Positions 786 to 27,714 of a stretch of 27,714 bases of DNA are shown here, piece by piece. This DNA is from a virus (lineage: Duplodnaviria; Heunggongvirae; Uroviricota; Caudoviricetes), in the IMG/VR virus record IMGVR_UViG_2778261035_000014, one strand, 5' to 3'. The notes below the pieces were generated by a model, which ran no database searches, had not been told where the DNA came from, and saw only the letters and a program-made list of their open reading frames with translations. Within the stretch, counting starts at the first letter, position 1. Each line of letters begins with the position of its first letter. The position numbers were made by a program, and so were the translations under genes.

Positions 786-832
786 TGGAGCGGGCGAAGG
801 GAATCGAAAAGGCTTGCTCTAAGCACCGGAAA
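786..832. repeat. Left att junction: 22-bp core tggagcgggcgaagggaatcga (786-807) plus 16-bp motif ctctaagcaccggaaa (817-832)
   Basis: The core is identical to 14043-14064 and the 16-mer to 13978-13993. The core's reverse complement TCGATTCCCTTCGCCCGCTCCA has a T-loop, acceptor 3' strand and CCA, matching my recollection of tRNA-Gly (glyU-type). The adjacent sequence does not fold into a full tRNA. Confidence 0.6.
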
Positions 833-900: not shown

Positions 901-2115
901 ATGACGATCAAGGGCAAAGGAACAAATTATCTTTACGTAAACAGTGACGGGATTTATATCATCCAGCTTCATATTCCCGTTTACATGCGCCACCTCTGGA
1001 ACGGTCGCAAGATGCTTAAAAAATCAACAGGCACTCGCGATCTTGTGTTGGCTCGTAGGTTTCGTGATCAGTACCTGATGGAGTTCAGAAGGCTACAGGC
1101 GCAATTCAACCCAAATGCTTATCTCCTCAAGATTCAGTCAGCCATTACCGATCTACGTTTCGTTGGTGCTGCATCTACTAATCTCGTTCCAGATTTTCAG
1201 ACAGCCACCAAAGGGAAACCTTCAACGCCAAAGTTAAAAGACCTTTGCGACGAATACATGAAGGTGTATTCAGACAGGCGGAGCTACTCCACTTTGCAAA
1301 AGTCTGCCCGTGCTGTCGAGGCGTTTACGAAATCCATAAAAAGACCAGCGATTACAATTGGCAGTATTGGTCGCCGTATGGTGACGGAGTTCCTGGAGGC
1401 TAACCAAGGCAAGTTTTCACCTCAAACGTTGCAGAACTGGCTAACCTCTTTGGGGAGTCTGTACGAATTCGCCAAACGTCGATATGACGCAATCCCGGAC
1501 AGTAACCCGTTTCACGGTCACAACCTCGAAGCACGGCGCACCATTGAAAGTTATCAACCGTTTGAAGCCAATCAACTGGATACCCTTATCAGAGAAGCGG
1601 ATGACGTTCTACGCGATGTCATATTAATTGGGCTGTATTCAGGAATGCGACTTGATGAGATCGCCAGCATTAAACGGGATGAGATTGTAATGTTGGAGGG
1701 TGTCAGATGTTTCTTTGTCAGCAAGTCCAAGACTGTAGCCGGGGTGCGGTATGTTCCGATCCACTCGCTACTGATGGGGATTGTTGATAAGCATCTGACA
1801 CAGAACAGTGGTGAATATCTTCTGGCACAGTCTAATAACATCATTCGGAAGGATGGCAAGCGAGGTCCGTGGTACAGCCAAAAGTTCACCCGGCTGCGTG
1901 ATAGCGTTTTGCCAACAGCTACAGATCGGCAGTGCTTCCACTCTTTGAGAGGGATGTTCATCACCTGCCTGGACCGGGCAGGAGTTCCCGAACAACGGAT
2001 CGGAGCCATTACGGGGCACACAGAGCAGAAAGCGAAAACTGAAGCATTCAGAACCTACAGCAAAGGCGCGGGGATGAAGGAACTATCAGAGTATGTGGAG
2101 TTGGTGAATTACTGA
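901..2115 (+). CDS. int: Tyrosine-type site-specific integrase (phage integrase family)
   Basis: 404 aa. C-terminal catalytic motifs are visible: SGMRLDE (Arg), HSLRGMF (His-x-x-Arg), GHTEQ...RTYS (His/Tyr). Its C-terminal half is about 70% identical to the 14141-15361 product. Confidence 0.9.
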   Translation: MTIKGKGTNYLYVNSDGIYIIQLHIPVYMRHLWNGRKMLKKSTGTRDLVLARRFRDQYLMEFRRLQAQFNPNAYLLKIQSAITDLRFVGAASTNLVPDFQTATKGKPSTPKLKDLCDEYMKVYSDRRSYSTLQKSARAVEAFTKSIKRPAITIGSIGRRMVTEFLEANQGKFSPQTLQNWLTSLGSLYEFAKRRYDAIPDSNPFHGHNLEARRTIESYQPFEANQLDTLIREADDVLRDVILIGLYSGMRLDEIASIKRDEIVMLEGVRCFFVSKSKTVAGVRYVPIHSLLMGIVDKHLTQNSGEYLLAQSNNIIRKDGKRGPWYSQKFTRLRDSVLPTATDRQCFHSLRGMFITCLDRAGVPEQRIGAITGHTEQKAKTEAFRTYSKGAGMKELSEYVELVNY

Positions 2116-3263: not shown

Positions 3264-4280
3264 TTACGCCGCGTCATCCATCGTAATTTTCAAAACGAAG
3301 TCCGGACGCATTGGGATCTGAATTTGTGATAGCTCGCTGACCACCTCATAATTCATGAACTTATCACGCAGAACGTAATGGTAAGACGGATAAACCGGAC
3401 CATTAGCAACTTCTGCGTGGCGTGAGGCTGGCGTGCAGTAGGTCATATAAGGTGAAAGGTCGCCTTCAACAACATTGGAGAACGTCGCCAGCATGTAGCC
3501 TTCACCATCTGCAATGCCATATAGCGGATCGTCAACCTGCACCACTGTTACACGCCCGATGTTATATCGATCATATGCACCCAAAGTGTCAGGGAAAATG
3601 ATGTCACGGGACGTAGCACCAAACAGAGCCGCCTGATATGCGGTTGGGTTGCCTTGAATGGCGGTGAAAAGACTCGGACTCGCCAGCAGATAAACCTGCT
3701 TGATGCTGGAAGACCAGCCACCCAGATTTTTCTTCAGCAGCGTGACAGCGTTCTGCATCTCAGTAATGACGTTGGCACTGATGCCAGTTTTCACCACAGC
3801 AGACGGCTGGTTAATACCCCAGAAGGTTTGCCAGTTCAGATCAGGACCTTCACGTAGGTGTGTCGCCTCTACAGTATTGTGAAGCAGGCTCTGCGCCATG
3901 GCATATTCAACATCACGGCGGGTTTGCAGGTAGTGCTTCAGGGTATGATTAGCAACTACATCTTCAGCGGTCATCTGGCGATTTGTTCCCGGCTGACGTT
4001 TCCCCTGCCAATCCTGGCTGGTGATGGTTGAGCTGTAGACATGCAGTGGAGCCTGAACGGTCACGTTAGCCGCTTTAGGGAAGTTTAGACCCGACATTTC
4101 AGAACCATAACGGGCAACTGATTTAGTCACTTCACGCTGCACATCTTCAAGTGTGTCGAGTGCGATGATTTGCGTATCACTTGGACGGCTGGTAAAGATC
4201 CCCAGGCTGGACAGAAGGAACCCCTCGCCGCTTGGCTTCACGAATTGACCAGAAAGATTAGTAAAATCACTTAATTTCAT
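3264..4280 (-). CDS. Major capsid protein, lambda gpE-like (Phage_cap_E-type)
   Basis: 338 aa against about 341 for lambda E. By eye it shares block patterns with my recollection of gpE, such as a C-terminal RPDFVLKIT motif. Paralogous to 17665-18693 (DWQGKRQPG vs DVQGKRKPG). AAGGAG Shine-Dalgarno. Follows a ~115-aa gene, as in lambda D-E. Confidence 0.7.
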   Translation of the reverse strand: MKLSDFTNLSGQFVKPSGEGFLLSSLGIFTSRPSDTQIIALDTLEDVQREVTKSVARYGSEMSGLNFPKAANVTVQAPLHVYSSTITSQDWQGKRQPGTNRQMTAEDVVANHTLKHYLQTRRDVEYAMAQSLLHNTVEATHLREGPDLNWQTFWGINQPSAVVKTGISANVITEMQNAVTLLKKNLGGWSSSIKQVYLLASPSLFTAIQGNPTAYQAALFGATSRDIIFPDTLGAYDRYNIGRVTVVQVDDPLYGIADGEGYMLATFSNVVEGDLSPYMTYCTPASRHAEVANGPVYPSYHYVLRDKFMNYEVVSELSQIQIPMRPDFVLKITMDDAA

Positions 4281-4298: not shown

Positions 4299-4643
4299 TT
4301 AGATTGCGGTGTTTGCGTCAGCAATACGGTTGCCTTGCTTAACAAGGGCAGCGTAAGCAGCATCTTTTGCAGCAGCCGCTACAACCAGACCTGATGGATT
4401 GAACACGCATTGGGTATCACTGATAACAAGGCTACGGGCATCACCAGCGACTTGATTTTGCAGAGCTACAGCACAGTTATCAGCATCTGCTGCAACGTAT
4501 GCCGCGCCAGTGGTCGGGTTAATCACATCACCACAAGTCACATCAGCAGCCAGATCAAGGATCACGGTGCGCTTATGAAAGATCGGTGAATCGGTATAAA
4601 CCAATACATCCTGTGGGGTTTTGCTTTCGTATTCGAATGCCAT
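4299..4643 (-). CDS. Putative head decoration protein (gpD-like by size and synteny)
   Basis: 114 aa from the ATG at 4643, which has a GGAGA Shine-Dalgarno (ORF-track start is 4658). Directly upstream of the capsid gene with an 18-nt gap. Paralog at 18712-19083. Product is assigned from size and position, not from clear sequence identity. Confidence 0.45.
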   Translation of the reverse strand: MAFEYESKTPQDVLVYTDSPIFHKRTVILDLAADVTCGDVINPTTGAAYVAADADNCAVALQNQVAGDARSLVISDTQCVFNPSGLVVAAAAKDAAYAALVKQGNRIADANTAI

Positions 4644-4694
4644 ATTTTGTATCTCCATACAGTTTTTATAATCCGGCGAATATGCCGGGTTGAG

Positions 4695-5313: not shown

Positions 5314-7482
5314 TTAGTCCGCAATCCCAAGGATGAGGTTATTCTGCGCCTGGTTGTTTTCCCTTATCTTGGTATCAATCAGACCGTTAATCGCACCATC
5401 ATTAACATTCACCTCAAGAGGCGCAAACTTGATCTCAGCTTCGCCAGTGACCGCAACAGGAATCGGCTGTCGTTGAACTATGCTATCAATTGTCGGAACC
5501 GTGAACGTTGGTTGCTGGGGTGTCAGATAGTTCAGGCCAGGAACATTCAACGCTAGTGCTGGATCGTTATACGCCATGCCTGAGCCGATATTGCTCGGAG
5601 CGGAACTATCCAGCCACGGGTAAATCTGCTTAAGCGTCTGACCGATGCTACGTGGATCAAAGCCGGTCTTTTCCTTAATCCAATCGGCAGCACCATTTGA
5701 GGAGTCATCTACCACGCTCGTATAAACCGCATCCGGCAATGTTGCGCCTTTCTTGAGTTCTTCACCGACTCGACCAGCGAAGGAAAGAATGTTGGTGGTT
5801 AGCTCACCAAGAGCAACGCCGAGGGCATCGGAAATTGGGATCAGTCCAGTCATATTCTGACGTAGAGTGTCAGTATTGGCAGCGTACTGCCCCAGGCCTT
5901 CAACAAACGAGGCTGAGAAGTGATCCGCAAGACTTGTTTGTACTCGGTTGTACTCAGCACCCAAAGCTGCCAGCTTATCAAGGTTGGCCTGCTGTGCATC
6001 AGATAGGGTCCATCCTTCAGAAGCGAGTTGATGCATACGGGCAATAACTTCATCACCTTCCCCACTGATACCCGCCATCAAGACCGATCCGTCATTGATC
6101 GCTTCCAAAAAATGACGCATGGAATTCTCTGTCCAGCCGAATTGTTTACCCAACTGCCGCACATAGGTAACGAAGGTCCCCATGTCCAATTTCTGAAGCT
6201 CGCCAATCACTTTTTGTGCTGTTCGCTGGTTGGTTTTGCTAAGAACTGCATTCACCAGATCGGCAAGTTCACCACCTCCGCTGAATGTTGTTACCCCTTG
6301 CTTGTTAGTTTTAAAGGAACCGGTATTCAGTAGCTCACCTGCTTTCTCGAAGTAATCCTTATTCATGGACGCATACTTATCTACGGTCAGGTCGTACCCT
6401 GTACGCTTCTGTACAACGTCATGGATAGCATTAAATTCAAGCTGGCTAATATCATACTGCCTTAATTGCTGCGCCTCTCTGGAGCGTTCAAGACTCCCCT
6501 GGAGGGTCTGACCAACACGAGCAACTCCCATTGAACCAATCAGGGATCCCCCTGCAATTACACCAGTGGCAGCGAGGCCACCATAACCACGTTCGCTACG
6601 TTCACGTCTCAAACGTTGAGCATTAACGCGCCCTGCTCGCTCTACTTTAGCCCGATCCTTAACCATCTGGCGGTTAATACGTGCCTGCCGCCTGGTTTCC
6701 AGAGTCGCTTTAGCAAGTTCATGGCGCATTTCTGCGATGGTATAACGCTGCTCGGAGTATCCCTTGGTAGCCTCTTTGATTGCCTGCACCGCTTTCATTT
6801 TGTCAGCCAGGCTGGCACCTTCGATATGGCTGATCGTTAAACTGGCGCGGCGTAGGGTGTCGTATGCAGTGCTCTGGCGCTTGAGGCTGGCTTCTTTCTC
6901 ACGCTGGCGCTTCTCTTCCAGGGCCATCGCCTTTTTGGTGGCTGCGATGTCAGCAGCAACAGCGCCGTGACCACGGTTCATTGCGTCAGTCTGACGGGAA
7001 ACAAGACCAGGATCGTAATGTTGACCGCCCATGTTAGGGTTGTAGGTCATCGCTCGTGATCTGGCTGCGGCCTGCACTTTTGCGGATATATTGGCTAAAC
7101 GGGCGTTTTGTCTCCGGATCTGTTCACTATCTGCCAATTGTTGAGCCTGCCCTCTGGCGTTAAGAGCCTGCATTTTCCGGGCGTGAGCCTCTTCCTGTTT
7201 TGCGATCTTTGCCTGGGCTTGGGCCTGGCGTTGTTGCTCTAGCGAAAGCTTTTGAGCCATTTTGAGGCGCTGTGTTTGAGCGCGGGCTGCTTCAAGGGCT
7301 GCTTTACCCTCACTCTGGGCGGTTCGCTTCTGAGCTTGCTCCAGCGCTTTAGCAGGTTTGGTAGTTAATTGCTGAAGTGACAGAATTTTCTTCTTCGCTG
7401 CTTCGTAACTAGAGCGGGAAATTTCCCAGCTTACGATATTGACGGTGCTCGTCACTATCTTGTTGGTTGTTCCACTACTCAT
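5314..7482 (-). CDS. Long coiled-coil protein with a glycine-rich hydrophobic segment (tape-measure-like, function unresolved)
   Basis: About 722 aa from the ATG at 7482 (MSSGTTNK...), which overlaps the upstream stop in ATGAGTAG. N-terminus is Ala/Gln/Lys/Arg-rich and helical. Central segment GYGGLAATGVIAGGSLIGSMGVARVG. Analogous to 15469-17310. Confidence 0.6.
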   Translation of the reverse strand: MSSGTTNKIVTSTVNIVSWEISRSSYEAAKKKILSLQQLTTKPAKALEQAQKRTAQSEGKAALEAARAQTQRLKMAQKLSLEQQRQAQAQAKIAKQEEAHARKMQALNARGQAQQLADSEQIRRQNARLANISAKVQAAARSRAMTYNPNMGGQHYDPGLVSRQTDAMNRGHGAVAADIAATKKAMALEEKRQREKEASLKRQSTAYDTLRRASLTISHIEGASLADKMKAVQAIKEATKGYSEQRYTIAEMRHELAKATLETRRQARINRQMVKDRAKVERAGRVNAQRLRRERSERGYGGLAATGVIAGGSLIGSMGVARVGQTLQGSLERSREAQQLRQYDISQLEFNAIHDVVQKRTGYDLTVDKYASMNKDYFEKAGELLNTGSFKTNKQGVTTFSGGGELADLVNAVLSKTNQRTAQKVIGELQKLDMGTFVTYVRQLGKQFGWTENSMRHFLEAINDGSVLMAGISGEGDEVIARMHQLASEGWTLSDAQQANLDKLAALGAEYNRVQTSLADHFSASFVEGLGQYAANTDTLRQNMTGLIPISDALGVALGELTTNILSFAGRVGEELKKGATLPDAVYTSVVDDSSNGAADWIKEKTGFDPRSIGQTLKQIYPWLDSSAPSNIGSGMAYNDPALALNVPGLNYLTPQQPTFTVPTIDSIVQRQPIPVAVTGEAEIKFAPLEVNVNDGAINGLIDTKIRENNQAQNNLILGIAD

Positions 7483-7858
7483 TGCCCCCCCCCTGCTGCT
7501 TGATGATATTGCCGTAACGATCAGGATCAGATTTTGCGAGTGCAGCAGCCGCTGCTTTAGCTTTCGCCAGCATTTCAGGATCGATATGGTCAGCGGTATG
7601 TGAGACAACCGGACGGCTATCAGCACCCAACGATTTTTTAATCCGTTGTTCAGCACCAAAGGTGTCTCGCATTGGTGAGAGGGCTTCGCCCTTTTTACCC
7701 GTGGGTGTGTCAGCCGGGGCTGATTTGAGCAACTCCGGATGTTGATCCAGAAAGTTATCGGTGACGCTCTTCAGATTGTCCCGCGCTTTTTGAAGTTCGT
7801 ATTCCTCCGGTGTCATGCCATGCATGGCGGCGAAAATCCGGTCTTTTATTGTGGTCAT
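7475..7858 (-). CDS. Hypothetical protein (127 aa)
   Basis: ORF with a GGAGA Shine-Dalgarno, translationally coupled to the downstream long gene. Contains the MRDTFGAE segment whose DNA (7655-7695) is about 85% identical to 3175-3217. Confidence 0.45.
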   Translation of the reverse strand: MTTIKDRIFAAMHGMTPEEYELQKARDNLKSVTDNFLDQHPELLKSAPADTPTGKKGEALSPMRDTFGAEQRIKKSLGADSRPVVSHTADHIDPEMLAKAKAAAAALAKSDPDRYGNIIKQQGGGNE

Positions 7859-8029: not shown

Positions 8030-8608
8030 TTAGTAGTGCAGGCGTGGTGAACGTCGCTGCGGGTTCTTCTGTTTTCTGGCGACTGTTTCACGATAGGCCA
8101 CAAACAACGGATCAGTATGATCCGGCATTCGAGATGCCATTTCTTTTTCAGTGATTCCTTCACGCTTAAGCAGCGTCACCACGGTGAATAGAGGCAGTTG
8201 AAGGTCAGCACAGATTTTTGCCAGCATTGCGCCGGATTCGTAGTACATTCGGGCCATTCGCTTAGTGGCATACTGACTGGTATTGCTTATCTTACGACAG
8301 CGAGGATTCCACGAGTTATCGTAAAGGCCTTTTACCAGGTCATACGGCAAGCGTAGGAGCAGCGCCGTTTTGCCTGGGGTGTAACCATGCACGAGCATTT
8401 TTTTAGCAGTCTCGATCAGCGAAGAATCACGAGAGCGGGATTTGTAAAAACGTGACAAATCGGGGGTTTCAGCACCGGAGGTGTTTACCTCTGGTAAACT
8501 GCTTCGCACCGTAAGGGATTCAGCCGTCAGGCCGTTGGCTGTCTGGCTGATGCCAGTTACTTTCTCACACAATATTCCTCCAGTATCAAAAAGGGATCTC
8601 AGGATCAT
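8030..8608 (-). CDS. Hypothetical HTH-containing protein (possible regulator or small-terminase-like); start uncertain
   Basis: ORF of up to 199 aa whose 5' end overlaps the rep-like gene. HTH-like segment GAMLAKICADLQLPLFTVVTLLKREGI. No family recognised with confidence. Confidence 0.35.
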   Translation of the reverse strand: MILRSLFDTGGILCEKVTGISQTANGLTAESLTVRSSLPEVNTSGAETPDLSRFYKSRSRDSSLIETAKKMLVHGYTPGKTALLLRLPYDLVKGLYDNSWNPRCRKISNTSQYATKRMARMYYESGAMLAKICADLQLPLFTVVTLLKREGITEKEMASRMPDHTDPLFVAYRETVARKQKNPQRRSPRLHY

Positions 8609-9389
8609 CTTCATCGTAGTGATATACATCCGGCCCGTTAACTTGTTGCTTTACTGGCGCTGGTTCTGTTGCGGGTATATCGTCAGGCCGCATCTGTTCT
8701 CCTGGCTCACCCATATTGGTTTTGCCTTTCAGTTTCCATACAAGTTTGATCTCATCCTGCCAGGTTGTAGCACCATGGGATTGCGCCCAGCGTCGCGCCT
8801 CTGGAACCAAATCCCCACGAGAGGTAAACGAGTTGGCGAGCCATGGTATCCCGACAACATTTTCCCCAGCTGACTCACTCAGTGATGGATCATCACTATT
8901 GGATAAATCAACATCGACAGGAATATCCACAGCAGGTACGCCGTCTGGTTTTCCAGTAACAGGCGCGGCAGATGCCACCACGAAAGATTCCACAACAGGT
9001 TTTTGCTCATTCTTACCGCTCTCCTCGGTTTCCACTTTTCTATTACTCGCCTGCGCGGAATTATGATCGTCAAGAAAAACCATCAGCGATGGATCGAGTT
9101 CGACCGGAGAAATTTTGTGTGTACTCCCCTTCACTTCCTCAAAAGTGATCATTCCAGCTTCACGAAGCTTGTTCCTGAAATTGCGAACGGCTTCGGGCTT
9201 GCAGCCGCAACGTTTACCAATCGTGCCAACAGATTCGTAATAAGTTCTGCCTGTTTTGTCATAGCTGTAAACCAGAGATAACAAAATTTTCATGTTGCCA
9301 TTAATGGTCAGGCCGTTGTACTCGGTAAGGTCGAGAACGCTGTATTCAAGTTTTACAAAATCCTTACTGTCCCGGTTCTGTTTGCTCAT
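8586..9389 (-). CDS. Replication-initiator-like protein with N-terminal winged-helix DNA-binding domain
   Basis: 267 aa with a GGAGA Shine-Dalgarno. N-terminal segment KILLSLVYSYDKTGRTYYESVGTIGKRCGCKPEAVRNFRNKLREAGMIT is typical of phage or plasmid replication initiators. Acidic Pro-rich C-terminus. Positional analogue of 21938-22603. Confidence 0.55.
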   Translation of the reverse strand: MSKQNRDSKDFVKLEYSVLDLTEYNGLTINGNMKILLSLVYSYDKTGRTYYESVGTIGKRCGCKPEAVRNFRNKLREAGMITFEEVKGSTHKISPVELDPSLMVFLDDHNSAQASNRKVETEESGKNEQKPVVESFVVASAAPVTGKPDGVPAVDIPVDVDLSNSDDPSLSESAGENVVGIPWLANSFTSRGDLVPEARRWAQSHGATTWQDEIKLVWKLKGKTNMGEPGEQMRPDDIPATEPAPVKQQVNGPDVYHYDEDDPEIPF

Positions 9390-10102: not shown

Positions 10103-10850
10103 TGGGTTCTCCGTTCTGTTAAAAGAATTATTCGCGGAGGTTCTATTTGTAACCCATTTTGTATTGCCGTGAGGTTGACAAGGAATGTCGTGATGACGGC
10201 AGAATTATTCGAGGATTCATAGGTAAATCATTACCCTACTAGAATCTATTGTATCAGATTTGTCTGTAAATAGCAATCATTATCATGTAGGATTTTATAA
10301 TGCATAATAATCACCATAACACTACAAGTTTACAAAATCTTTGTCAATAGTGCCAAGCCGTTCTATAACGCGTTCTGCGGGTACTTGTCACCATAGGAGT
10401 ACATACGTATCACCACCACCGTTTAAACGCCATAGAGAGGCTTTAAGGAGGTCTGTTAGTTAACCCGCGCCGCCCCGGAGTGAACCGGACAGATGCAAAG
10501 CAGTCCTCTACGCCGTGCTCCGCTCCACATATGGCGAACAAGTTCGCAGCTTCCACACAGAGTAAGAGCGTAGCTCTATGGCGTAGCCTGCCGGGTTACC
10601 CGAGTCACAGAGCGGAGCGATGTGTTAACGAGGGTTAGAAGGTCACGAGATGGCGTGGCTGTTTCACGTCAGCGAAGGTGAGCTTCTTACCACAAACATA
10701 TCTGAAGTGGCTGACCAGCCATTGCAGAGCGGAGCGATGCAGAAGCATCACTATTAAAACTAACAGAATGACCAACCGTCATTCCGTGCTCTCGACCTGG
10801 AGGTACTTTTCTTATCAGTTCTTTTATGGGGATTGTTATTTATTATTATT

Positions 10851-10932
10851 GTGCTCGAAAATCGACTACCCCCTACTCGAAAATCGTGCAGGTAGGTGCT
10901 CGAAAATCGAGGGGGTGGGTACACGAAAATCA
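10851..10932. repeat. Iteron-like array: four ~23-bp direct repeats with core CTCGAAAATCG
   Basis: gtgctcgaaaatcg (10851), tactcgaaaatcg (10875), gtgctcgaaaatcg (10896), acacgaaaatca (10921). Spacing is 22-24 bp, about two helical turns. The spacers ctaccccct and agggggtgg are complementary. Confidence 0.55.
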
Positions 10933-12213
10933 TGCAGGTATCACCGGGTGAGAATTTTCCAAGTCATCCACGCGACCAACGCACCGATGAAAACTTCCGG
11001 TTTGATATGTCCGCGTCATGCTTCAATGGCACAATCAACGGCAACACCTGAGGCGGTCCAAACACCTGATCCGCTCCGAGAATTGATCATCTCCCTCCCC
11101 TGCTTTCATCTGAAAGTACCGACCATTCTCCGCGCTGGCTGAAGATTGGCAACCCTATACTGATTTTCTGTCAAAATTTGGTGGATGATCTTTACCATTG
11201 GCTATCTTGTAAACAAAATAGATTAAATGCACCTCAAATAGCCCATAATCCGTAGTTAATCATGCTAAAGTGGTCACTATGCGTACAAATCAGAAGTCTG
11301 AACCTATGGGCGTTATGGTGTGATGTACATAACGAAGCCTTGCCAGCACTGGAAGCGTGAAATTTGGTGGCTGGTATCTGGATCAAGCAACACTCAATTT
11401 CTGAACCTTCGCTTCAAAAAAATAATAAAACAACACACAAAACCAAAACAGATGCCCTCTGGTGGCTGCTGTATCGCGCTGTGGGATGCTGTGGATTATC
11501 GGTATGTCAGTTCACGTTTGTGTAGAGATAACGCCGCTACGGGTTTCTGGTTGAGCGTAGGAGGGATTGGTGGGTTGGCTGTTTACATTGTTGTGGGAAA
11601 TGGTACGAAACAGTGGCGGCCTGGCTCGGTGAATATCACCAGGTGATGGCAGACCTTCAGCCCGTTGTGGTAACGTCGCCGTAGTAGCCCTATGTCTGCT
11701 GCGAATAGAAAAATGTGCTTTTATGGCATTTGATGCACTGTAAACTTCAAAGGCCTGAAACCTGAAATTGTGTGGTGACCAGCCAAACTCATCCAAAATC
11801 CTTGAACAAGAGAACTCACCTCAAATCCTCCTGAATGCTTTCCTTCTGTTGGTGAAATCGCTGTTGTGTACCACGCTTCGCATCAACGCTCCGAAAAGCA
11901 ATACCTGACTATTCCAGTCAAGTACATGTAAGATACAATATGTTAAATGGCTGTACAATTAGTGAACACAGGCACTTCAAAACATCAAGTTATCTCCCTT
12001 GCCTCAGCCCAAAGCAGCATTGTGTAACTGCACTGCTTGTTGCAGTGAGGCGTGTCGCTGAAGGCATCACGTAGCGATATTTGGCGAAGAAAAGCGCTTT
12101 TCACCGAGGGCCTGGGCTGACGGTCTAGCAGATCACCAACAGAGCTGGGGATATTTTCAACAGGAGAATGTAAACTTGGAAGATAAAGAGCCGGGACACT
12201 TACGGGGCAGGTT

Positions 12214-12429
12214 GTGGAAATGAAGAAAATTTTACTATTTGTTGTGGTACTGCTGCCGCTGGCGGCTCATGCAGGAAAAATCACCATAAGCAACCCCGAC
12301 GAACAAGAATTACAGGGCGGGAAAAGGCTTTGCACTTACGAAAACAGCATTTATCTGTTTACGCTGGTGACTCGCTCGCAATCCTGCCCTTTCTCAAAAA
12401 CGTTCGATACAAATGATAATGAAAAGTGA
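12214..12429 (+). CDS. Small secreted protein with two conserved Cys (paralog of 25846-26061)
   Basis: About 70 aa with signal peptide MKKILLFVVVLLPLAAHA. Conserved blocks GKITISNPDEQ, LCTYENS.YLFT, CPFSKTFDT are shared with the element-2 paralog. Confidence 0.6.
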   Translation: MEMKKILLFVVVLLPLAAHAGKITISNPDEQELQGGKRLCTYENSIYLFTLVTRSQSCPFSKTFDTNDNEK

Positions 12430-12442
12430 AACGGAATGTCTG

Positions 12443-12931
12443 CTAATGGGGTGCTTTGCCGATCATCTCCTTAAGATCTTTGAAGCGTTCTTTGATTATT
12501 CTTCCATTCTCGGCTAAACGATTCGCTTCAAACGCAGTGAATTGAGCAATATTTTCTATTTCTTCGCGGCTGATGCTCATAAAATTCTCATCAAGCTTAG
12601 AGAGCATATTTGTGACACCTTGTCTACTTTGTGTAAAGAAACCAAGGTTATCTCTGACACCCTTAAGAAGTTCTTTCTTACCATAAGGGTTCATATTTGT
12701 ACTCGTTTCTATAGACTTGATAAGCTCTTCCGTGTCACTACATATTCCACGGTAAACCAGTTCGACCTCACGAAGCTCTTTCACTGTATCAATTTTCATT
12801 TTCCTTAATGAATCATGCTCAGCATTTTTTCTTGATCGATAGGTGTTATACAGAGCAGTTATACTGACAACAAGTGCAATGAAAGAGAATAGAGCGCTAA
12901 AAAAAGGCAGCAATTCTTTTGACATTTTCAC
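12443..12931 (-). CDS. Membrane-anchored coiled-coil protein (cargo, unknown function)
   Basis: 162 aa with a GGAG Shine-Dalgarno. N-terminal TM helix LLPFFSALFSFIALVVSITALY, then a charged helical domain. Low GC. Confidence 0.6.
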   Translation of the reverse strand: MKMSKELLPFFSALFSFIALVVSITALYNTYRSRKNAEHDSLRKMKIDTVKELREVELVYRGICSDTEELIKSIETSTNMNPYGKKELLKGVRDNLGFFTQSRQGVTNMLSKLDENFMSISREEIENIAQFTAFEANRLAENGRIIKERFKDLKEMIGKAPH

Positions 12932-12953
12932 TCCAAATTTATTAGTCTAGAAG

Positions 12954-13652
12954 TTAACTTCTAAATTTTTGAAAACAACGTCGATCAATCTCTTGTGCCA
13001 ATCTAGTCCGCATCTCTCCATAGCTTAATCTTTCCATATCTGAGGCTATTTTCCAACCACAACCTTTGAAATTACATTTAATAATAGGAAATGGGACATA
13101 GTTATAGAGATCAACGCTGGAGTGTTGGCTAAGAAGGCCTCCACATTTAGGGCATCTCATGTGAAGATTTATTAAAGAGTACCCACTATCACCTAATGCT
13201 TTAGTCCATTCCCAAGAAACTATCATTTCATAAATATTATCCGAAGTATAATGCAAAAAACTGCCCTCTTGTCCTGTAGCTTTCGCTGCAATACGACGGC
13301 GCATTACAAATCCAACAGTAGGTAAAATTGCCAATAATAAAATCGATAAAATGAGGAGCATCCATAAGGGCATTGTGACTGGGAAGGTAAGGATGTCCAT
13401 TAACCAATGGAAGAACTGCTTAATGTAATTCCATAGCCACACAACGACGGCGATCCCACTTCCTCCAGTGACAAGTGCAACGATAACGCCCGATATGCTG
13501 TCTTTGCTAAGGTCTTTCAACCATGCCATAGAAATTCTTCTTATTAAGCTATTCTTTATGCTCAATTTTACAGCGAACCAGATTTTAGGCAATAGGAGCC
13601 ATAAAGCGCCGTGATGGGTACATCCATCGATCAGCGCCTTCAGGCGTGTCAT
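12954..13652 (-). CDS. Membrane protein with C-terminal 4-Cys zinc ribbon (cargo, unknown function)
   Basis: Up to 232 aa; the start may instead be the internal ATG at 13529. Two or three hydrophobic helices, then CPKC-(x25)-CNFKGC. Sits 22 nt upstream of the 162-aa gene, so probably an operon. Confidence 0.55.
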   Translation of the reverse strand: MTRLKALIDGCTHHGALWLLLPKIWFAVKLSIKNSLIRRISMAWLKDLSKDSISGVIVALVTGGSGIAVVVWLWNYIKQFFHWLMDILTFPVTMPLWMLLILSILLLAILPTVGFVMRRRIAAKATGQEGSFLHYTSDNIYEMIVSWEWTKALGDSGYSLINLHMRCPKCGGLLSQHSSVDLYNYVPFPIIKCNFKGCGWKIASDMERLSYGEMRTRLAQEIDRRCFQKFRS

Positions 13653-13977
13653 CAGATTTTCAGCGGTAACGATCAGTGAGTCAGGTGTGCATTTTCGTAT
13701 ACACGAAACGGGGTAGAGCCTGCCGCTTTCCCGGACAGGTTAGTAATCCCATCATATCGCCTGTTTATCCCGCGCTAAGGTCGTCGTAAGCGCCGCTGTT
13801 TCAGGAATGGTTTATAGCCATAGTGAAAGGCTTTGTTTTCTTGTTGGACTATCGCGGTAAGACACTGGAACGACCGCCAGCGTTTTGATAAGCTTCCTGA
13901 TCACTACTCACCAAATCGCGGTAGTTACCAAGGTAGAACGTCGAGAGGGTTCTCAACAGCGCTTACAGAGCGCCTCC

Positions 13978-14064
13978 CTCTAAGCACCGGAAACATAAAG
14001 ATTTTTTAGCTGATTTTAAGCGTAAAAAATCGCTGGAGCGGGCGAAGGGAATCGAGGAAACCCA
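13978..14064. repeat. Inter-element att junction: 16-bp motif (13978-13993) and 22-bp core (14043-14064)
   Basis: Same two motifs as at 786-832 but in the opposite order and with 49 nt between them. Confidence 0.6.
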
Positions 14065-17664: not shown

Positions 17665-18693
17665 TTACGCTACTGTGATCTGTACAGTGAAGCCTACGCC
17701 GTGGTTTACAACCATCTGGCTATTCTCGGTAACTACGTTTACAGCGTCGTTACGTGCTGGGCTAAATGCATAGCTGTAATATTCAGCCGATCCAGAGTTC
17801 AGAAGGTCGAACGTTGAAGAAGGAGCGCCGAAAATGTTCTGATAGACGTTAGAGCCTTTAGCGAACTTCGGAACAGCCACCGCATCAGAAGTCATATGAG
17901 CCAGCAGCAGCGGATCGGTAACTTTGATCAGATCAATGTTAGTGCCTGGAATAGTGAAGGTAGTCACACCTGGCAGCAGGGAGCGCACACTATAAACGAT
18001 GTTTGCGTCATCGGTAGGGCTTGCATACTGGAACGCGTTAACCATGCCAGCACTGTAACGGATAGCGTTAAATGCAGCAGGTTTACAGAATACAACGATA
18101 CGCTCTACAGCAGCCGCCTGGCTTTGTGCTTTAGTAATAACGTCTGTATGCATCTGATCGAATTGCTGGAACACCATAGAAGGCGTGGTGCTTGATGCGT
18201 CGATGGTTGCAGTCAGCGGAACAGCACTAAACAGATCGCCCCACTGAATCAGCACATCGTCAGTTTTAGGGGTGTAGGTGCGACCACTAAACAGGGAAGC
18301 AGCCAGTACGCTTTCTTTAGTACGCTGGAAAGCAATGTGGTGCTTAGCAACATATTCCGCGTAGATATCTGTCAGAGTCTCTTCAACGGTAGCGCCTGGT
18401 TTACGTTTGCCTTGAACGTCTTGCGGCTTAATCATATCTTCACGCAGGAAGTAGGGGATCTCTACTAAAAATTCTTTACCCTGTTCACGTTTAGTCACGT
18501 TATGTTCAGAAGAGAAACGAGAGGTTTCTTTGTTGAACAGAGATTCGTTAGTTTCCACCAGTTGGCTAACAGCCACTTTATGAGAACTCACACCTACCGG
18601 ATCAGTGAAGTCCAGAGTAGTTAACAGGAAGTTGCGAGAGTCGTGCAGACTAAACAGCGGAGCCAGATCGACGGATTCATTACCAATAATCAT
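17665..18693 (-). CDS. Major capsid protein, lambda gpE-like (second copy)
   Basis: 342 aa with an AAGGA Shine-Dalgarno. Paralogous to the 3264-4280 product and preceded by the small partner gene. Confidence 0.7.
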   Translation of the reverse strand: MIIGNESVDLAPLFSLHDSRNFLLTTLDFTDPVGVSSHKVAVSQLVETNESLFNKETSRFSSEHNVTKREQGKEFLVEIPYFLREDMIKPQDVQGKRKPGATVEETLTDIYAEYVAKHHIAFQRTKESVLAASLFSGRTYTPKTDDVLIQWGDLFSAVPLTATIDASSTTPSMVFQQFDQMHTDVITKAQSQAAAVERIVVFCKPAAFNAIRYSAGMVNAFQYASPTDDANIVYSVRSLLPGVTTFTIPGTNIDLIKVTDPLLLAHMTSDAVAVPKFAKGSNVYQNIFGAPSSTFDLLNSGSAEYYSYAFSPARNDAVNVVTENSQMVVNHGVGFTVQITVA

Positions 18694-25172: not shown

Positions 25173-25273
25173 ATTTAGTGCTCTCAACCATAAAACGTAT
25201 CGTGCAACATATTGAAAATGATCGTTTTATGATCAAAACTACTTTCATTGAAACGAATAAGGAGAGTATAAAG

Positions 25274-25852
25274 ATGAAAGGTATTAGCCAAGCCCTCAAG
25301 AATGTAGACGAGGTAAAAACAGTAGCAGCAGAGCTACAGCGCAATAGTAAAACCAACCTGTTTTATTGCTTATGGGTGTTTATGTATGAAAGCGGGTTGC
25401 GTGTCTCTGACGTACTCAAGCTAAAATATCAGGATGTTGAGGGGCAATCTCATTTGAAGATAAAGCAGGAGAAAACCGGAAACGTAGTAAGGCCAAAAGT
25501 TACCCCCGCCATGTTGTCAGTGGTGGCACAACGCAAGGCAGAGCAAACGAAGATGCCTGTAGCTACAGATTTTATTTTCAGTGCTGGCACATTACGCAGT
25601 AAAGGCGAAGCCGTAACCCGTAACACGGTATTCACTGAATTTGGGAAAATGGGACGTAGAGCCGGATTCTCTAATGTGGGATGCCATACGCCACGTAAAA
25701 GTCGGGGCCGTGTGATGTTTGATGCAGGGGTAGCTATAGAGACAATAGCCCATTTCCTGGGACAGACAGATCCGCGCTCTACTATGTATTACATCGGGTA
25801 TGGTCAGGATGTGCAGGACGATTTAGCAGAGGAGTTTTCTTTAGAATGGTGA
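25274..25852 (+). CDS. Small tyrosine recombinase, FimB/FimE-like (catalytic domain only, 192 aa)
   Basis: AAGGAG Shine-Dalgarno 9 nt upstream. Motifs ESGLRVSDV (Arg), HTPRKSRG (His-x-x-Arg), and C-terminal LGQTDPRSTMYY (Tyr). Size and motif spacing resemble my recollection of FimB. Stop overlaps the next start in ATGGTGA. Confidence 0.65.
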   Translation: MKGISQALKNVDEVKTVAAELQRNSKTNLFYCLWVFMYESGLRVSDVLKLKYQDVEGQSHLKIKQEKTGNVVRPKVTPAMLSVVAQRKAEQTKMPVATDFIFSAGTLRSKGEAVTRNTVFTEFGKMGRRAGFSNVGCHTPRKSRGRVMFDAGVAIETIAHFLGQTDPRSTMYYIGYGQDVQDDLAEEFSLEW

Positions 25853-26061
25853 TCCAAATTAAAAGCTTATTTGTGCTGACGTTGGCGCTATTGCCTGTCC
25901 TATCGAATGCCGGACAGATAACAATGGTCAACCCACAGGAAGAACAGACGGAGAATGGAAAAACGCTGTGCACGTATCAGAACAGCAATTATCTGTTCAC
26001 TTACGTAACTAAGGGGAAATGCCCTTATACAAAAACATTTGACACTTCCGCCAAAGAATAA
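25846..26061 (+). CDS. Small secreted protein with two conserved Cys (paralog of 12214-12429)
   Basis: 71 aa with signal peptide MVIQIKSLFVLTLALLPVLSNA. Conserved blocks GQITMVNPQEE, LCTYQNSNYLFT, CPYTKTFDT. Confidence 0.6.
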   Translation: MVIQIKSLFVLTLALLPVLSNAGQITMVNPQEEQTENGKTLCTYQNSNYLFTYVTKGKCPYTKTFDTSAKE

Positions 26062-26066
26062 CGATT

Positions 26067-26486
26067 TTAACGGGATTTTGGATAAATGCTGTTTCTGCAA
26101 TTAATGCAATACCAACTCGCGGAGTATTGACCAACGGCACGCGAAAAAACCATGTGTGTTTGCACCTTATCAACTTCAAAGCATTTGGGACAGTAGGCTG
26201 TTTCATCGCCTTCTTTCCAGTAAAGTCCATCTTTGAAAGTGAAGGTGTGCTTATCCTTTAGCTGATCTTCAAGCTGCTTATTTTTCTGTTCAGCCTCAAA
26301 AAGAAGTGCTTGGGTTGTGATTACTTCCATCTTCACACTTGCAAGTTCGCTCATGAGGTTAGCAAGCTCAAGTTTAAGCGTTGCTTTATCAAGTTCGCCG
26401 CCATCATCAGCGAGCTTCTTTGCAATACCTACAGCTTTGTCAATGATACCTACAGCCGCCGCTGTACTTGCCAACACTCCAGACAT
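26067..26486 (-). CDS. Coiled-coil protein with C-terminal zinc ribbon (cargo, unknown function)
   Basis: 139 aa. Central heptad-like region, then CPKC-(x24)-CINC. Last gene of the leftward three-gene operon. Confidence 0.55.
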   Translation of the reverse strand: MSGVLASTAAAVGIIDKAVGIAKKLADDGGELDKATLKLELANLMSELASVKMEVITTQALLFEAEQKNKQLEDQLKDKHTFTFKDGLYWKEGDETAYCPKCFEVDKVQTHMVFSRAVGQYSASWYCINCRNSIYPKSR

Positions 26487-26508
26487 ATTGCCCCTAATTT
26501 TAACAAGT

Positions 26509-27144
26509 TCACTTTATAAAAGCTAAAGCCCTAAGAACGGTTTTTAACCGCGTTACCTGCTCAGGCTTTTCAAGTTCATCCAAATTAACATTAATTTTAT
26601 CTAAACAGATGGCTATACGTGACATAACCTCGCCATGAATCTGCTTCAAACCTTCGCCATATTGAGTGGCAATATGGTAAGTCTGTTCTAAATTAAAACG
26701 ATGGATATCTTTCTGCGTTTCATGAAATATGGTTTGAAGTTTAGCTAAGTCCTCTAAAACCTGATTATTCATTCTGAAAGTATCAACCAGACTCCTTGCT
26801 GAGCCATAACAAATAACAATTGCCTTCATTGTCTCTTCATTAACAGAAGTTAATGCGAAAGAGTTGCTTTCATAGAATGAGAAATAATTTTGAGTCAACG
26901 GAAAGATGCTTTCAAAAGGTTTACCACCTTCATAATTTTCAAGAGAATCGTAAATTCTGGCTTTATAAAGTTCCAGAAGCGTTTCGACTTCTGCTTTTAT
27001 TCCAATCAAGACACTCTTTTGCTTATCCTTTGCTTCATTAAATGAAGCTCTGTCTTGCCTACGTCCATCGATCAGAGTACCCCACAGGGTGAACAATCCC
27101 CCTATCAAGGCACCAACTAAACCAGAAATCAGTTCACTTCCCAT
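26509..27144 (-). CDS. Membrane-anchored protein (cargo, unknown function)
   Basis: About 211 aa from the ATG at 27144 (ORF-track start is TTG at 27159). N-terminal TM helix ELISGLVGALIGGLFTLWGTLI. Begins 16 nt after the upstream stop. Confidence 0.55.
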   Translation of the reverse strand: MGSELISGLVGALIGGLFTLWGTLIDGRRQDRASFNEAKDKQKSVLIGIKAEVETLLELYKARIYDSLENYEGGKPFESIFPLTQNYFSFYESNSFALTSVNEETMKAIVICYGSARSLVDTFRMNNQVLEDLAKLQTIFHETQKDIHRFNLEQTYHIATQYGEGLKQIHGEVMSRIAICLDKINVNLDELEKPEQVTRLKTVLRALAFIK

Positions 27145-27159
27145 GTTGCCCCCTAACAA

Positions 27160-27714
27160 TCATTTTTGACAGCAATGATCCCATTGCTCAGTAGTCCTTG
27201 CAACTCGATCACTGATTGCAAAGTTATTCAGCAACGAATCATAAGCGTACACTTTGCTTTTATCATCTGCTGTCATCAACTTACCATCAGGTTTCAACTT
27301 TGGCGAAAGCAAGTATGTACCGTTTAAACGGTTAGCTTTGAAGCTATCAACATGCAACGTTACTTCAGCACTTCCCAGCACACGTAAAGAACCTATTCTG
27401 CCATTCTTTATTGTTGCTATCGAATACTGACATAGATAAGTTTTCACAATTGAAGCTGCGTTTTTTTCGGCAATCTTCGCTGATGGAGAATCCAAAGAGG
27501 ATTTGGGGATTGAACTATGAAGAGAAGATGACGGATAAGAGTAATGTTGATAAGTAGAAGATGAGCGCGAACTACCTCCACATGTTTTCCATGCCGCAAT
27601 ACACGAATTACCACACGGTATACCTTTCTTGCAATTCTTCGCGTATGCAGAGAACGACAACCCAGCTAATAGAAATATACCAATGGTTATCCTAACCAGC
27701 GAAGACCAACCCAT
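27160..27714 (-). CDS. Secreted Cys-rich and Ser-rich protein (cargo, unknown function)
   Basis: 184 aa with the ATG exactly at the window edge. Signal peptide with AYA cleavage site, then CKKGIPCGNSCIAAWKTCGG, a Ser-rich linker, and a C-terminal domain. Confidence 0.5.
   Translation of the reverse strand: MGWSSLVRITIGIFLLAGLSFSAYAKNCKKGIPCGNSCIAAWKTCGGSSRSSSTYQHYSYPSSSLHSSIPKSSLDSPSAKIAEKNAASIVKTYLCQYSIATIKNGRIGSLRVLGSAEVTLHVDSFKANRLNGTYLLSPKLKPDGKLMTADDKSKVYAYDSLLNNFAISDRVARTTEQWDHCCQK

Follow-up and report, generated by a model that had tools for sequence, protein, structure and literature searches.

The DNA analysed here, called the window below, is the whole 27,714-nucleotide (nt) stretch catalogued as IMG/VR virus record IMGVR_UViG_2778261035_000014. 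It is a piece of the Escherichia coli chromosome, 99.9% identical to strain RM10740, and lies at the glyU tRNA-Gly locus between a ygeQ/IS3 remnant and actS-xdhA. It contains an integrative element of approximately 13.3 kb, Element 1, near the right end of which two small minus-strand genes, A and B, face a third, S, that encodes a small secreted protein. These three open reading frames (ORFs) are where the first-pass annotation of the sequence had placed them, and the 13 nt that it gave between the convergent stops of B and S are confirmed. The same annotation proposed that the A-B operon is an accessory module resembling those that satellites and prophages carry for phage defence or exclusion, and we consider here the evidence that bears on this proposal, which comes mainly from what occupies the same position in related elements and from the neighbours of A-like genes elsewhere.

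Gene A had been described as encoding a 232-amino-acid (aa) protein with several transmembrane (TM) segments that ends in a four-cysteine zinc ribbon. Two TM segments and a Cys4 ribbon are indeed predicted, but the protein is 191 aa long and the ribbon is followed by a conserved C-terminal helix with the motif EIDRRCFQ. The shorter length is indicated by the RefSeq call of 191 aa, by the homologues, which are 187-191 aa long in all 17 of 17 clusters, and by a promoter-like site inside the supposed 41-codon extension; this sigma-70-like candidate, recognized by its match to the consensus, lies 36 nt upstream of the A start codon and thus within the spurious N-terminal stretch. Hydropathy places the TM segments at about residues 11-34, where the helix is glycine-rich, and 52-78, with RRR...K immediately after them. 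A Trp-rich beta region (strands within 96-134) comes next, then the zinc ribbon with a CPKC knuckle (C126, C129) and a Cx4C knuckle (C152, C157), and finally the basic C-terminal helix. The four cysteines are invariant in 17 close homologues, and in the AlphaFold2 (AF2) model (predicted local distance difference test score, pLDDT, 69) the first knuckle sits between well-predicted strands. Comparison of the A profile with solved structures returned as its best match an Rpb9-type zinc ribbon, at a marginal E of 1e-3 to 3e-2 over about 45 residues.

Gene B encodes a protein with one N-terminal TM helix, as had been suggested (approximately residues 5-27 by hydropathy), followed by RSRK, which by the positive-inside rule implies an N-out/C-in orientation and a cytoplasmic helical domain. 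The AF2 model (pLDDT 86.4) has helices at 5-74, 80-114 and 120-157, such that the TM helix runs on into a three-helix bundle; a Foldseek search of PDB and BFVD with this model gave no match below E 0.1, and the fold resembles generic helical bundles only. On these models A and B are both predicted to be inner-membrane proteins with cytoplasmic domains. The sequence GGAG precedes the B start codon by 5 nt, and this Shine-Dalgarno motif together with the 28 nt spacing between the genes fits their co-transcription from the promoter candidate in the att arm. The low GC content noted at first holds: A is 39.8% GC and B 37.9%, compared with 47.5-51.1% for the integrase, capsid, tape-measure-like and replication-initiator-like genes that form the core of the element. 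The view that neither protein belongs to a known family also stands, in that Pfam, NCBIfam and PADLOC gave nothing significant for either one, the PADLOC check having been among those proposed at the outset. Matches of A, B and S to TssO, Reticulon and TcpD were weak, below the cut-off and derived from TM or coiled-coil composition, and were set aside.

The S product consists of a signal peptide, MKKILLFVVVLLPLAAHA, and a 51-aa mature part with two cysteines, and its gene has a GC content of 43.3%. It matches phrog_4641, a family listed as of unknown function, at E 1.5e-8 (residues 3-64 against positions 1-67 of the 68 in the profile), with nothing significant in Pfam, NCBIfam or PADLOC, and homologues are found in virulent phages of 137-154 kb. 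No terminator-like hairpin was found in the 13-nt gap between S and B, and the equivalent gap is 3 nt in the related Citrobacter element. The dN/dS ratios between species, namely 0.15-0.31 (A), 0.07-0.18 (B) and 0.21-0.23 (S), indicate purifying selection and not chance ORFs. The coordinates of these genes and of the other features of the window are collected in Table 1.

Table 1. Features of the window discussed in the text (positions are numbered from the first nucleotide of the window)
Feature	Position	Strand	Remarks
Left att copy	786-807		22-bp perfect direct repeat, identical to the tRNA-Gly(CCC) 3' end; left limit of Element 1
Tyrosine integrase gene	901-2115		Element 1
Phage_cap_E-like major capsid protein gene	3264-4280		Element 1
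Lambda-D-like decoration protein gene	4299-4658		Element 1; weak match
Tape-measure-like protein gene	5314-7659		Element 1; 781 aa
Replication-initiator-like helix-turn-helix (HTH) protein gene	8586-9389		Element 1
S	12220-12429	+	69 aa (RefSeq start); 71 aa from GTG at 12214
S-B gap	12430-12442		13 nt between convergent stops (S stop 12429; B stop codon starts 12443)
B	12443-12925	-	160 aa; ATG at 12925
A	12954-13529	-	191 aa; start is M42 of the 232-aa ORF
Att arm	13530-14033		Non-coding; between A and att core
Sigma-70-like promoter candidate for A-B	13565-13592	-	TTGCCT, 16-nt spacer, TAAAAT; consensus match only
Right att copy	14034-14055		TCGATTCCCTTCGCCCGCTCCA as read on the minus strand; right boundary of Element 1
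Element 2 integrase gene	starts 14141		Right after right att repeat; Element 2 is of the same family as Element 1
Element 2 capsid gene	17665-18693		
Second S-family gene	25846-26061	+	71 aa; marks second cargo slot, same layout
Second-slot cargo	26067-27714	-	Convergent with second S-family gene

The position of A and B is a variable slot between S and the right attachment (att) copy. The borders of this slot are fixed, with an S-family gene on one side and an att site, an integrase gene or a tRNA on the other, in Element 1, in the loci L009/L029 and L132, and at 25846-27714 of the window itself; its contents are of four kinds, namely A and B, a 262-aa gene with a DUF4145 gene, GmrSD, and genes for proteins of 139, 216 and 184 aa. 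A sister element at thrW (tRNA-Thr), present in strains CS6L and LWY24, retains S together with the sequence on its upstream side (88% identity over window positions 11312-12425 and 95.6% over the last 600 nt to 12407), and there the 262-aa gene and the DUF4145 gene replace A and B between S and the tRNA. The DUF4145 protein is a full-length match to the PADLOC model for PD-T7-4 (E 6e-102), a defence protein since renamed RAZR. In E. coli O104:H21 a GmrSD restriction gene (RefSeq annotation) sits beside a tyrosine integrase gene and converges, across 10 nt, on a truncated copy of S. With four contents recurring in one layout, two of them including established defence genes, the position is a defence hotspot in the sense used for P2 phages and P4 satellites. 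The secreted-protein gene does not belong to the cargo: an S-family gene is kept beside differing cargos (L009/L029, L132 and window 25846-26061), and by this pattern S is part of the backbone and a landmark for the inner edge of the slot. The proposed accessory module is thus borne out insofar as A and B occupy a variable slot that holds known defence genes in sister elements, but S falls outside it and the pairing of A with B is not obligate.

The second slot within the window encodes, besides a 139-aa coiled-coil protein with a C-terminal zinc ribbon, a helical-domain protein of 216 aa with one TM segment and a Cys-rich secreted ORF of 184 aa that runs to the window end; none has a PADLOC match. 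A relationship between the 216-aa single-TM protein and B was considered and rejected, there being no sequence similarity. In Enterobacter, an ORF of 142 aa that lies downstream of A (L010:8343-8771) resembles the 139-aa protein. A short tyrosine-recombinase ORF of 224 aa (25178-25852) overlaps at its end with the second S-family gene. The O104:H21 locus (L132; NZ_CP023541 3017560-3031720) is a thiM island between two copies of a thiamine pyrophosphate (TPP) riboswitch, and its S remnant is unannotated.

A 1.4 kb block comprising S, B and A (12210-13614) is 89.5% identical in a sister element of Citrobacter amalonaticus, while the flanks are far more divergent. That element (L030/L031, 6117-9705) lies next to holE and has a 580-aa large serine recombinase in place of the tyrosine integrase. 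To judge from these alignments, integration module and cargo are swapped between elements, and the S-B-A block has evidently moved as a unit.

Both genes are rare and separable. Among 5426 complete E. coli genomes, 12 have the full cassette and three more have it in part, one of them with an IS3 truncation of B; a close A homologue is found in 1 of 185,579 species-representative genomes. Close homologues of A (53-99% identity) form 18 clusters, with Cronobacter, Klebsiella and Enterobacter as named sources, and those of B only five, the named members of which are from Enterobacter and Citrobacter. In Klebsiella michiganensis a 63%-identical A comes after a tRNA-Gly gene and before genes for a soluble 258-aa CxxC protein and a truncated integrase; in Enterobacter an 83%-identical A is followed by three other small genes, without B; in Cronobacter A is intact and B decayed; and on a metagenomic contig (L033) a 72%-identical B follows the tRNA arm without A. 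By its distribution, then, A is the more widespread unit and B apparently an optional neighbour, and the pair is not obligate. The 258-aa partner has a 72%-identical copy beside another A-like protein (P0027) that is itself just 36% identical to the Klebsiella A, so that the two genes have been shuffled by recombination. This 258/260-aa soluble protein (L005:8592-9368 and L011:6561-7343) has an N-terminal CxxC...H...CxxC motif and no Pfam or PADLOC match, and may be a separate defence candidate. In E. coli PSJ-36 (L008) an IS3 insertion has removed the element save for A and a truncated B beside tRNA-Gly; the same IS3 copy also flanks the ETT2 remnant (ygeQ) in other strains.

Beyond its close homologues A belongs to a larger family, which we collected by a profile search of 1.84 billion representative proteins (E<=1e-3, clusters at 50% identity) and which has 231 clusters at that threshold. 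Among the best 149 of the 231, the zinc-ribbon half is kept in 148 and both halves in 135; the median length of these 149 representatives is 186 aa, and a CxxC...Cx(1-5)C pattern is present in 125 of them. An alignment of 33 divergent members has invariant W56, Y94, W106, C126, C129, C157 and R183 at a mean column identity of 28%, and no Pfam family covers these proteins. The neighbours of distant members are frequently genes of defence or of mobile elements. One is part of a defence island in the order DNA methylase, TIR, PIN, A-like, KAP NTPase and AAA_21/RloB; another is directly downstream of an AIPR abortive-infection gene; a third is in a lambdoid prophage, at its integrase-proximal end, where it sits after DUF2971 and DUF3644 genes and between int and a cI-like repressor gene; others are beside Fic, an Eco57I-type restriction-modification methylase and an RVT_1 reverse transcriptase, or at glyU beside integrase, DUF4145 and resolvase genes. 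By guilt by association these contexts point to defence, in a manner that is suggestive.

The sequence WKDPVWSKVI was considered as a marker of the A family and rejected, since a metagenome scan with it gave 82 ORFs of which 17 were truly A-family. With its TM segment (L036-L131, metagenome and viral contigs) it is an unspecific N-terminal membrane leader that occurs in many A-family members but is also joined to a wide range of unrelated C-terminal domains. Among these are TIR_2, ankyrin, pentapeptide repeats and LMWPc, as well as a domain of approximately 340 aa that recurs and has no Pfam match. The other 65 ORFs have unrelated C-termini with few Pfam matches and were not counted as A-family context.

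Element 1 is bounded by two copies, 13.25 kb apart, of a 22-bp tRNA-Gly repeat that has two exact matches in the window and none in 100 shuffles. The cassette had been placed at the tRNA-proximal end, which is correct in the sense that it is att-proximal, next to the repeat copy at 14034-14055, and that it abuts tRNA-Gly elsewhere; no tRNA gene, nor any Rfam RNA, was found within the window itself, where Element 2 adjoins Element 1 and the real tRNA-Gly lies beyond the end. In other complete genomes Element 1 is the sole insertion and its right end enters the intact tRNA-Gly directly, at which point the match to the window stops. An integrase with att repeats, small size and an incomplete set of virion genes give Element 1 the character of a satellite; capsid, D-like and tape-measure-like genes are the virion genes recognized, and no portal, terminase or tail set is recognizable. 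From its gene content it is a satellite-like, capsid-encoding integrative element at E. coli glyU, for which dependence on a helper is putative. Elements 1 and 2 are of one family of small integrative elements that encode a Phage_cap_E-like capsid, a decoration-like protein, a tape-measure-like protein of 600-800 aa and a rep-like HTH protein, again without recognizable portal, terminase or tail genes in either. The phage relatives of the major capsid, tape-measure-like and S proteins are exclusively virulent myoviruses of 137-154 kb, which include Klebsiella phages FKP3, KP13-26, KP2025 and FBKp34, the rV5-like E. coli phage ECP26 and the phiWec phages, and such large virulent myoviruses may be the helper lineage of the family.

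Conservation extends to two further stretches of Element 1. The approximately 2.1 kb at 10103-12213 has no ORF longer than about 150 aa and no Rfam match, and is partly conserved in CS6L (88% over 11312-12425) and in Citrobacter (80% over 11470-11948); it could be an origin, a packaging region or an RNA gene. Within the att arm, a 150-nt stretch (13583-13733) is about 84% conserved in some 59 E. coli genomes that have other islands at glyU, where it lies approximately 340 bp from tRNA-Gly, and could contain binding sites for the recombinase or a recombination directionality factor, or a regulatory element.

Taking the comparative evidence as a whole, we see roughly an even chance that A and B are accessory anti-phage cargo in the att-proximal slot of Element 1, as the slot elsewhere holds validated defence genes and the A family recurs in defence islands and prophages. 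One specific scheme, drawn by analogy and in our view unlikely to be right in all its parts, is that A is a self-contained sensor-effector. Its cytoplasmic Trp-rich/Cys4 domain would recognize a phage-derived cue, most likely a phage protein as with the zinc-ribbon sensor of RAZR, and recognition would drive oligomerization of the glycine-rich two-TM hairpin; the hairpin might then collapse or depolarize the membrane, causing abortive infection, or, at the inner membrane, block the entry or exit of the genome. B would be an optional partner that restrains or tunes A, and S would be periplasmic, a part of the element backbone and outside the A-B module. More broadly, we hold it possible, if doubtful, that A founds a widespread and unannotated immune class (at least 150 clusters) in which a zinc-ribbon sensor is joined to a two-TM effector, acting alone or with swappable partners (B, the 258-aa CxxC protein, KAP NTPase, AIPR or reverse transcriptase), and carried by undescribed capsid-encoding satellites with rV5/phiTE-like myoviruses as helpers.

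Several observations weigh against an anti-phage role or against this scheme for it. Distant A homologues include several in insertions of one to three genes among housekeeping genes, with no recognizable defence neighbour, and the neighbourhood survey covered about 16 contexts without a background control and is not an enrichment test. No PADLOC v2 model matches A, B or S at E<=1, the coverage of 2TM-1TM-TIR by that library being unconfirmed, and tblastn searches with A, B and a distant A relative show homologues to be absent from 50,697 phage and 72,556 plasmid records. The A model is moderately confident, with the second knuckle poor (residues 138-155 have pLDDT below 50), and Foldseek searches of PDB and BFVD with the A and B folds gave no match below E 0.1. 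No homology between A and RAZR is detectable beyond the CPxC knuckle, so that the comparison of their sensors is no more than an analogy, and A and B each occur alone, so that a two-component mechanism is not required.

Other accounts of the cassette are conceivable. The persistence of A beside the tRNA after loss or decay of the element, as in PSJ-36 following IS3 insertion, in the Klebsiella remnant and in Cronobacter, would be expected of an addiction module that serves to stabilize the island, A acting as a small membrane toxin for which B or another neighbour provides the antidote; the tight A-B operon and the small two-TM form of A with its glycine-rich first helix would suit such a role. 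However, in Cronobacter, Enterobacter and Klebsiella A is intact although B has decayed or is missing, a situation in which an unneutralized toxin is not expected to persist; B is also found without A, and the partners of A are very diverse. We give addiction a low probability, noting that many toxin-antitoxin-like modules are themselves defence systems, such that it overlaps in part with the anti-phage reading. Of much the same low probability is a role for A, B and S in the satellite life cycle or in manipulation of a helper, for example through superinfection exclusion, lysis timing or DNA entry and exit. All three products are predicted to be envelope proteins, the S-B-A block travels as a unit between two element types, and S shares with the capsid and tape-measure-like proteins its sole phage relatives, the large virulent myoviruses; against this, sister elements with the same backbone have RAZR or other genes in place of A and B, so that the life cycle does not depend on this pair, most of the distant members of the A family lie outside capsid-encoding elements, and a cytoplasmic zinc ribbon would be unusual for an exclusion protein such as Imm, SieA or HK97 gp15.

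It is also conceivable that the genes are unrelated to phages, having a part in envelope stress, signalling or colonization and simply riding in a recombination-prone att-proximal region. The lack of homology to any defence family in PADLOC, the occurrence of some A homologues among housekeeping genes and the sharing of the WKDPVWSKVI leader by many proteins with unrelated C-termini speak for this, but the known defence genes in the slot elsewhere, the low GC content with a very patchy distribution, and the defence, conflict or mobile-element genes that adjoin A-family members in most of the well-flanked contexts examined leave it with a somewhat lower probability than the two preceding accounts. 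That the ORFs are non-functional remnants or annotation noise might be suggested by the hypothetical-protein annotation that is all A, B and S have and by the spurious 41-codon extension of A, but this is effectively refuted by conservation: dN/dS across species is 0.07-0.31 and lengths are conserved, Cys and Trp residues are invariant across an A family of low overall identity, and AF2 gives a confident model of B.

If A, with or without B, does protect its host, it would represent a new and fairly widespread family among the poorly understood membrane-associated defences and, if the proposed scheme were also true, a second minimal fusion of zinc-ribbon sensor and effector after RAZR, with a membrane hairpin in place of the RNase. 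The slot between the S gene and att is a landmark with which defence genes of the Enterobacteriaceae could be mined. The host element may be a new kind of capsid-encoding satellite tied to large virulent therapy phages, which would matter when phage resistance in E. coli and Klebsiella is to be predicted. Candidates of this sort are numerous, and A-B stands out by the size of the A family, by the parallel with RAZR and by the apparently undescribed nature of its host element.

Comparison with known systems places both the element and its cargo near, and outside, groups already described. The cf-PICIs are capsid-forming phage satellites, and the Streptomyces satellites Mulch and Flayer are also reported to be capsid-forming. 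Element 1 is similar to all of these in being small and integrase-bearing and in having its own major capsid and lambda-D-like decoration proteins, but it differs in its 781-aa tape-measure-like protein, in a gene order unlike that of cf-PICIs and in having large virulent myoviruses as its closest phage relatives; the literature searched contained no description of capsid-encoding satellites of this type. Short inner-membrane proteins of mobile elements that depolarize the membrane or block DNA entry include RexB, the two-TM effectors of CBASS and retrons, T4 Imm, P22 SieA and HK97 gp15. PADLOC and Foldseek showed no sequence or fold similarity of A or B to such proteins, none of which is known to have a cytoplasmic zinc-ribbon domain. 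The Cys4 ribbons of Rpb9 and TFIIS are similar to the one predicted in A in having two CxxC-type knuckles flanking beta strands; A is set apart from them by its membrane anchor, its Trp-rich beta hairpin and the basic helix at its C-terminus.

Defence hotspots in P2 phages and P4 satellites, which include the 2TM-1TM-TIR system, were described by Rousset et al. (2022; PMC9122126). The A-B slot is like these in its variable cargo, fixed position, conserved flanks and known defence systems among the contents, but belongs to another element family, with capsid, decoration and tape-measure-like proteins, at glyU or thrW. The joint encoding of a two-TM and a one-TM protein recalls 2TM-1TM-TIR in architecture only, as judged by hydropathy and AF2, whereas no TIR gene is found in the cassette with Pfam or PADLOC. 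PD-T7-4 was found by functional selection and, according to its authors, 'often overlaps an integrase gene' (PMC9519451); as RAZR (ring-activated zinc-finger RNase) it is an abortive-infection HEPN RNase, of which the N-terminal Rpb9-like Cys4 zinc ribbon is the sensor of phage proteins (PMC13017515). Like A, RAZR is a small Cys4 zinc-ribbon protein, is typically near integrases and has the corresponding place close to att in the sister element at thrW. Unlike A, it is soluble with a HEPN/DUF4145 RNase effector, whereas A has a two-TM hairpin and no match in Pfam to DUF4145, the HEPN RNase domain with its Rx4-6H motif; homology between the two zinc ribbons was rejected, as hhalign of the A profile against the CS6L RAZR gave a probability of 2.8%. 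The RefSeq accessions of A, B and S were not mentioned in the literature searched, nor in those parts of the DefensePredictor supplements that were accessible. Without a TIR gene the cassette is not 2TM-1TM-TIR, and without HEPN it is not RAZR; it belongs to no described system, and is a new candidate among the defence cargo of such hotspots.

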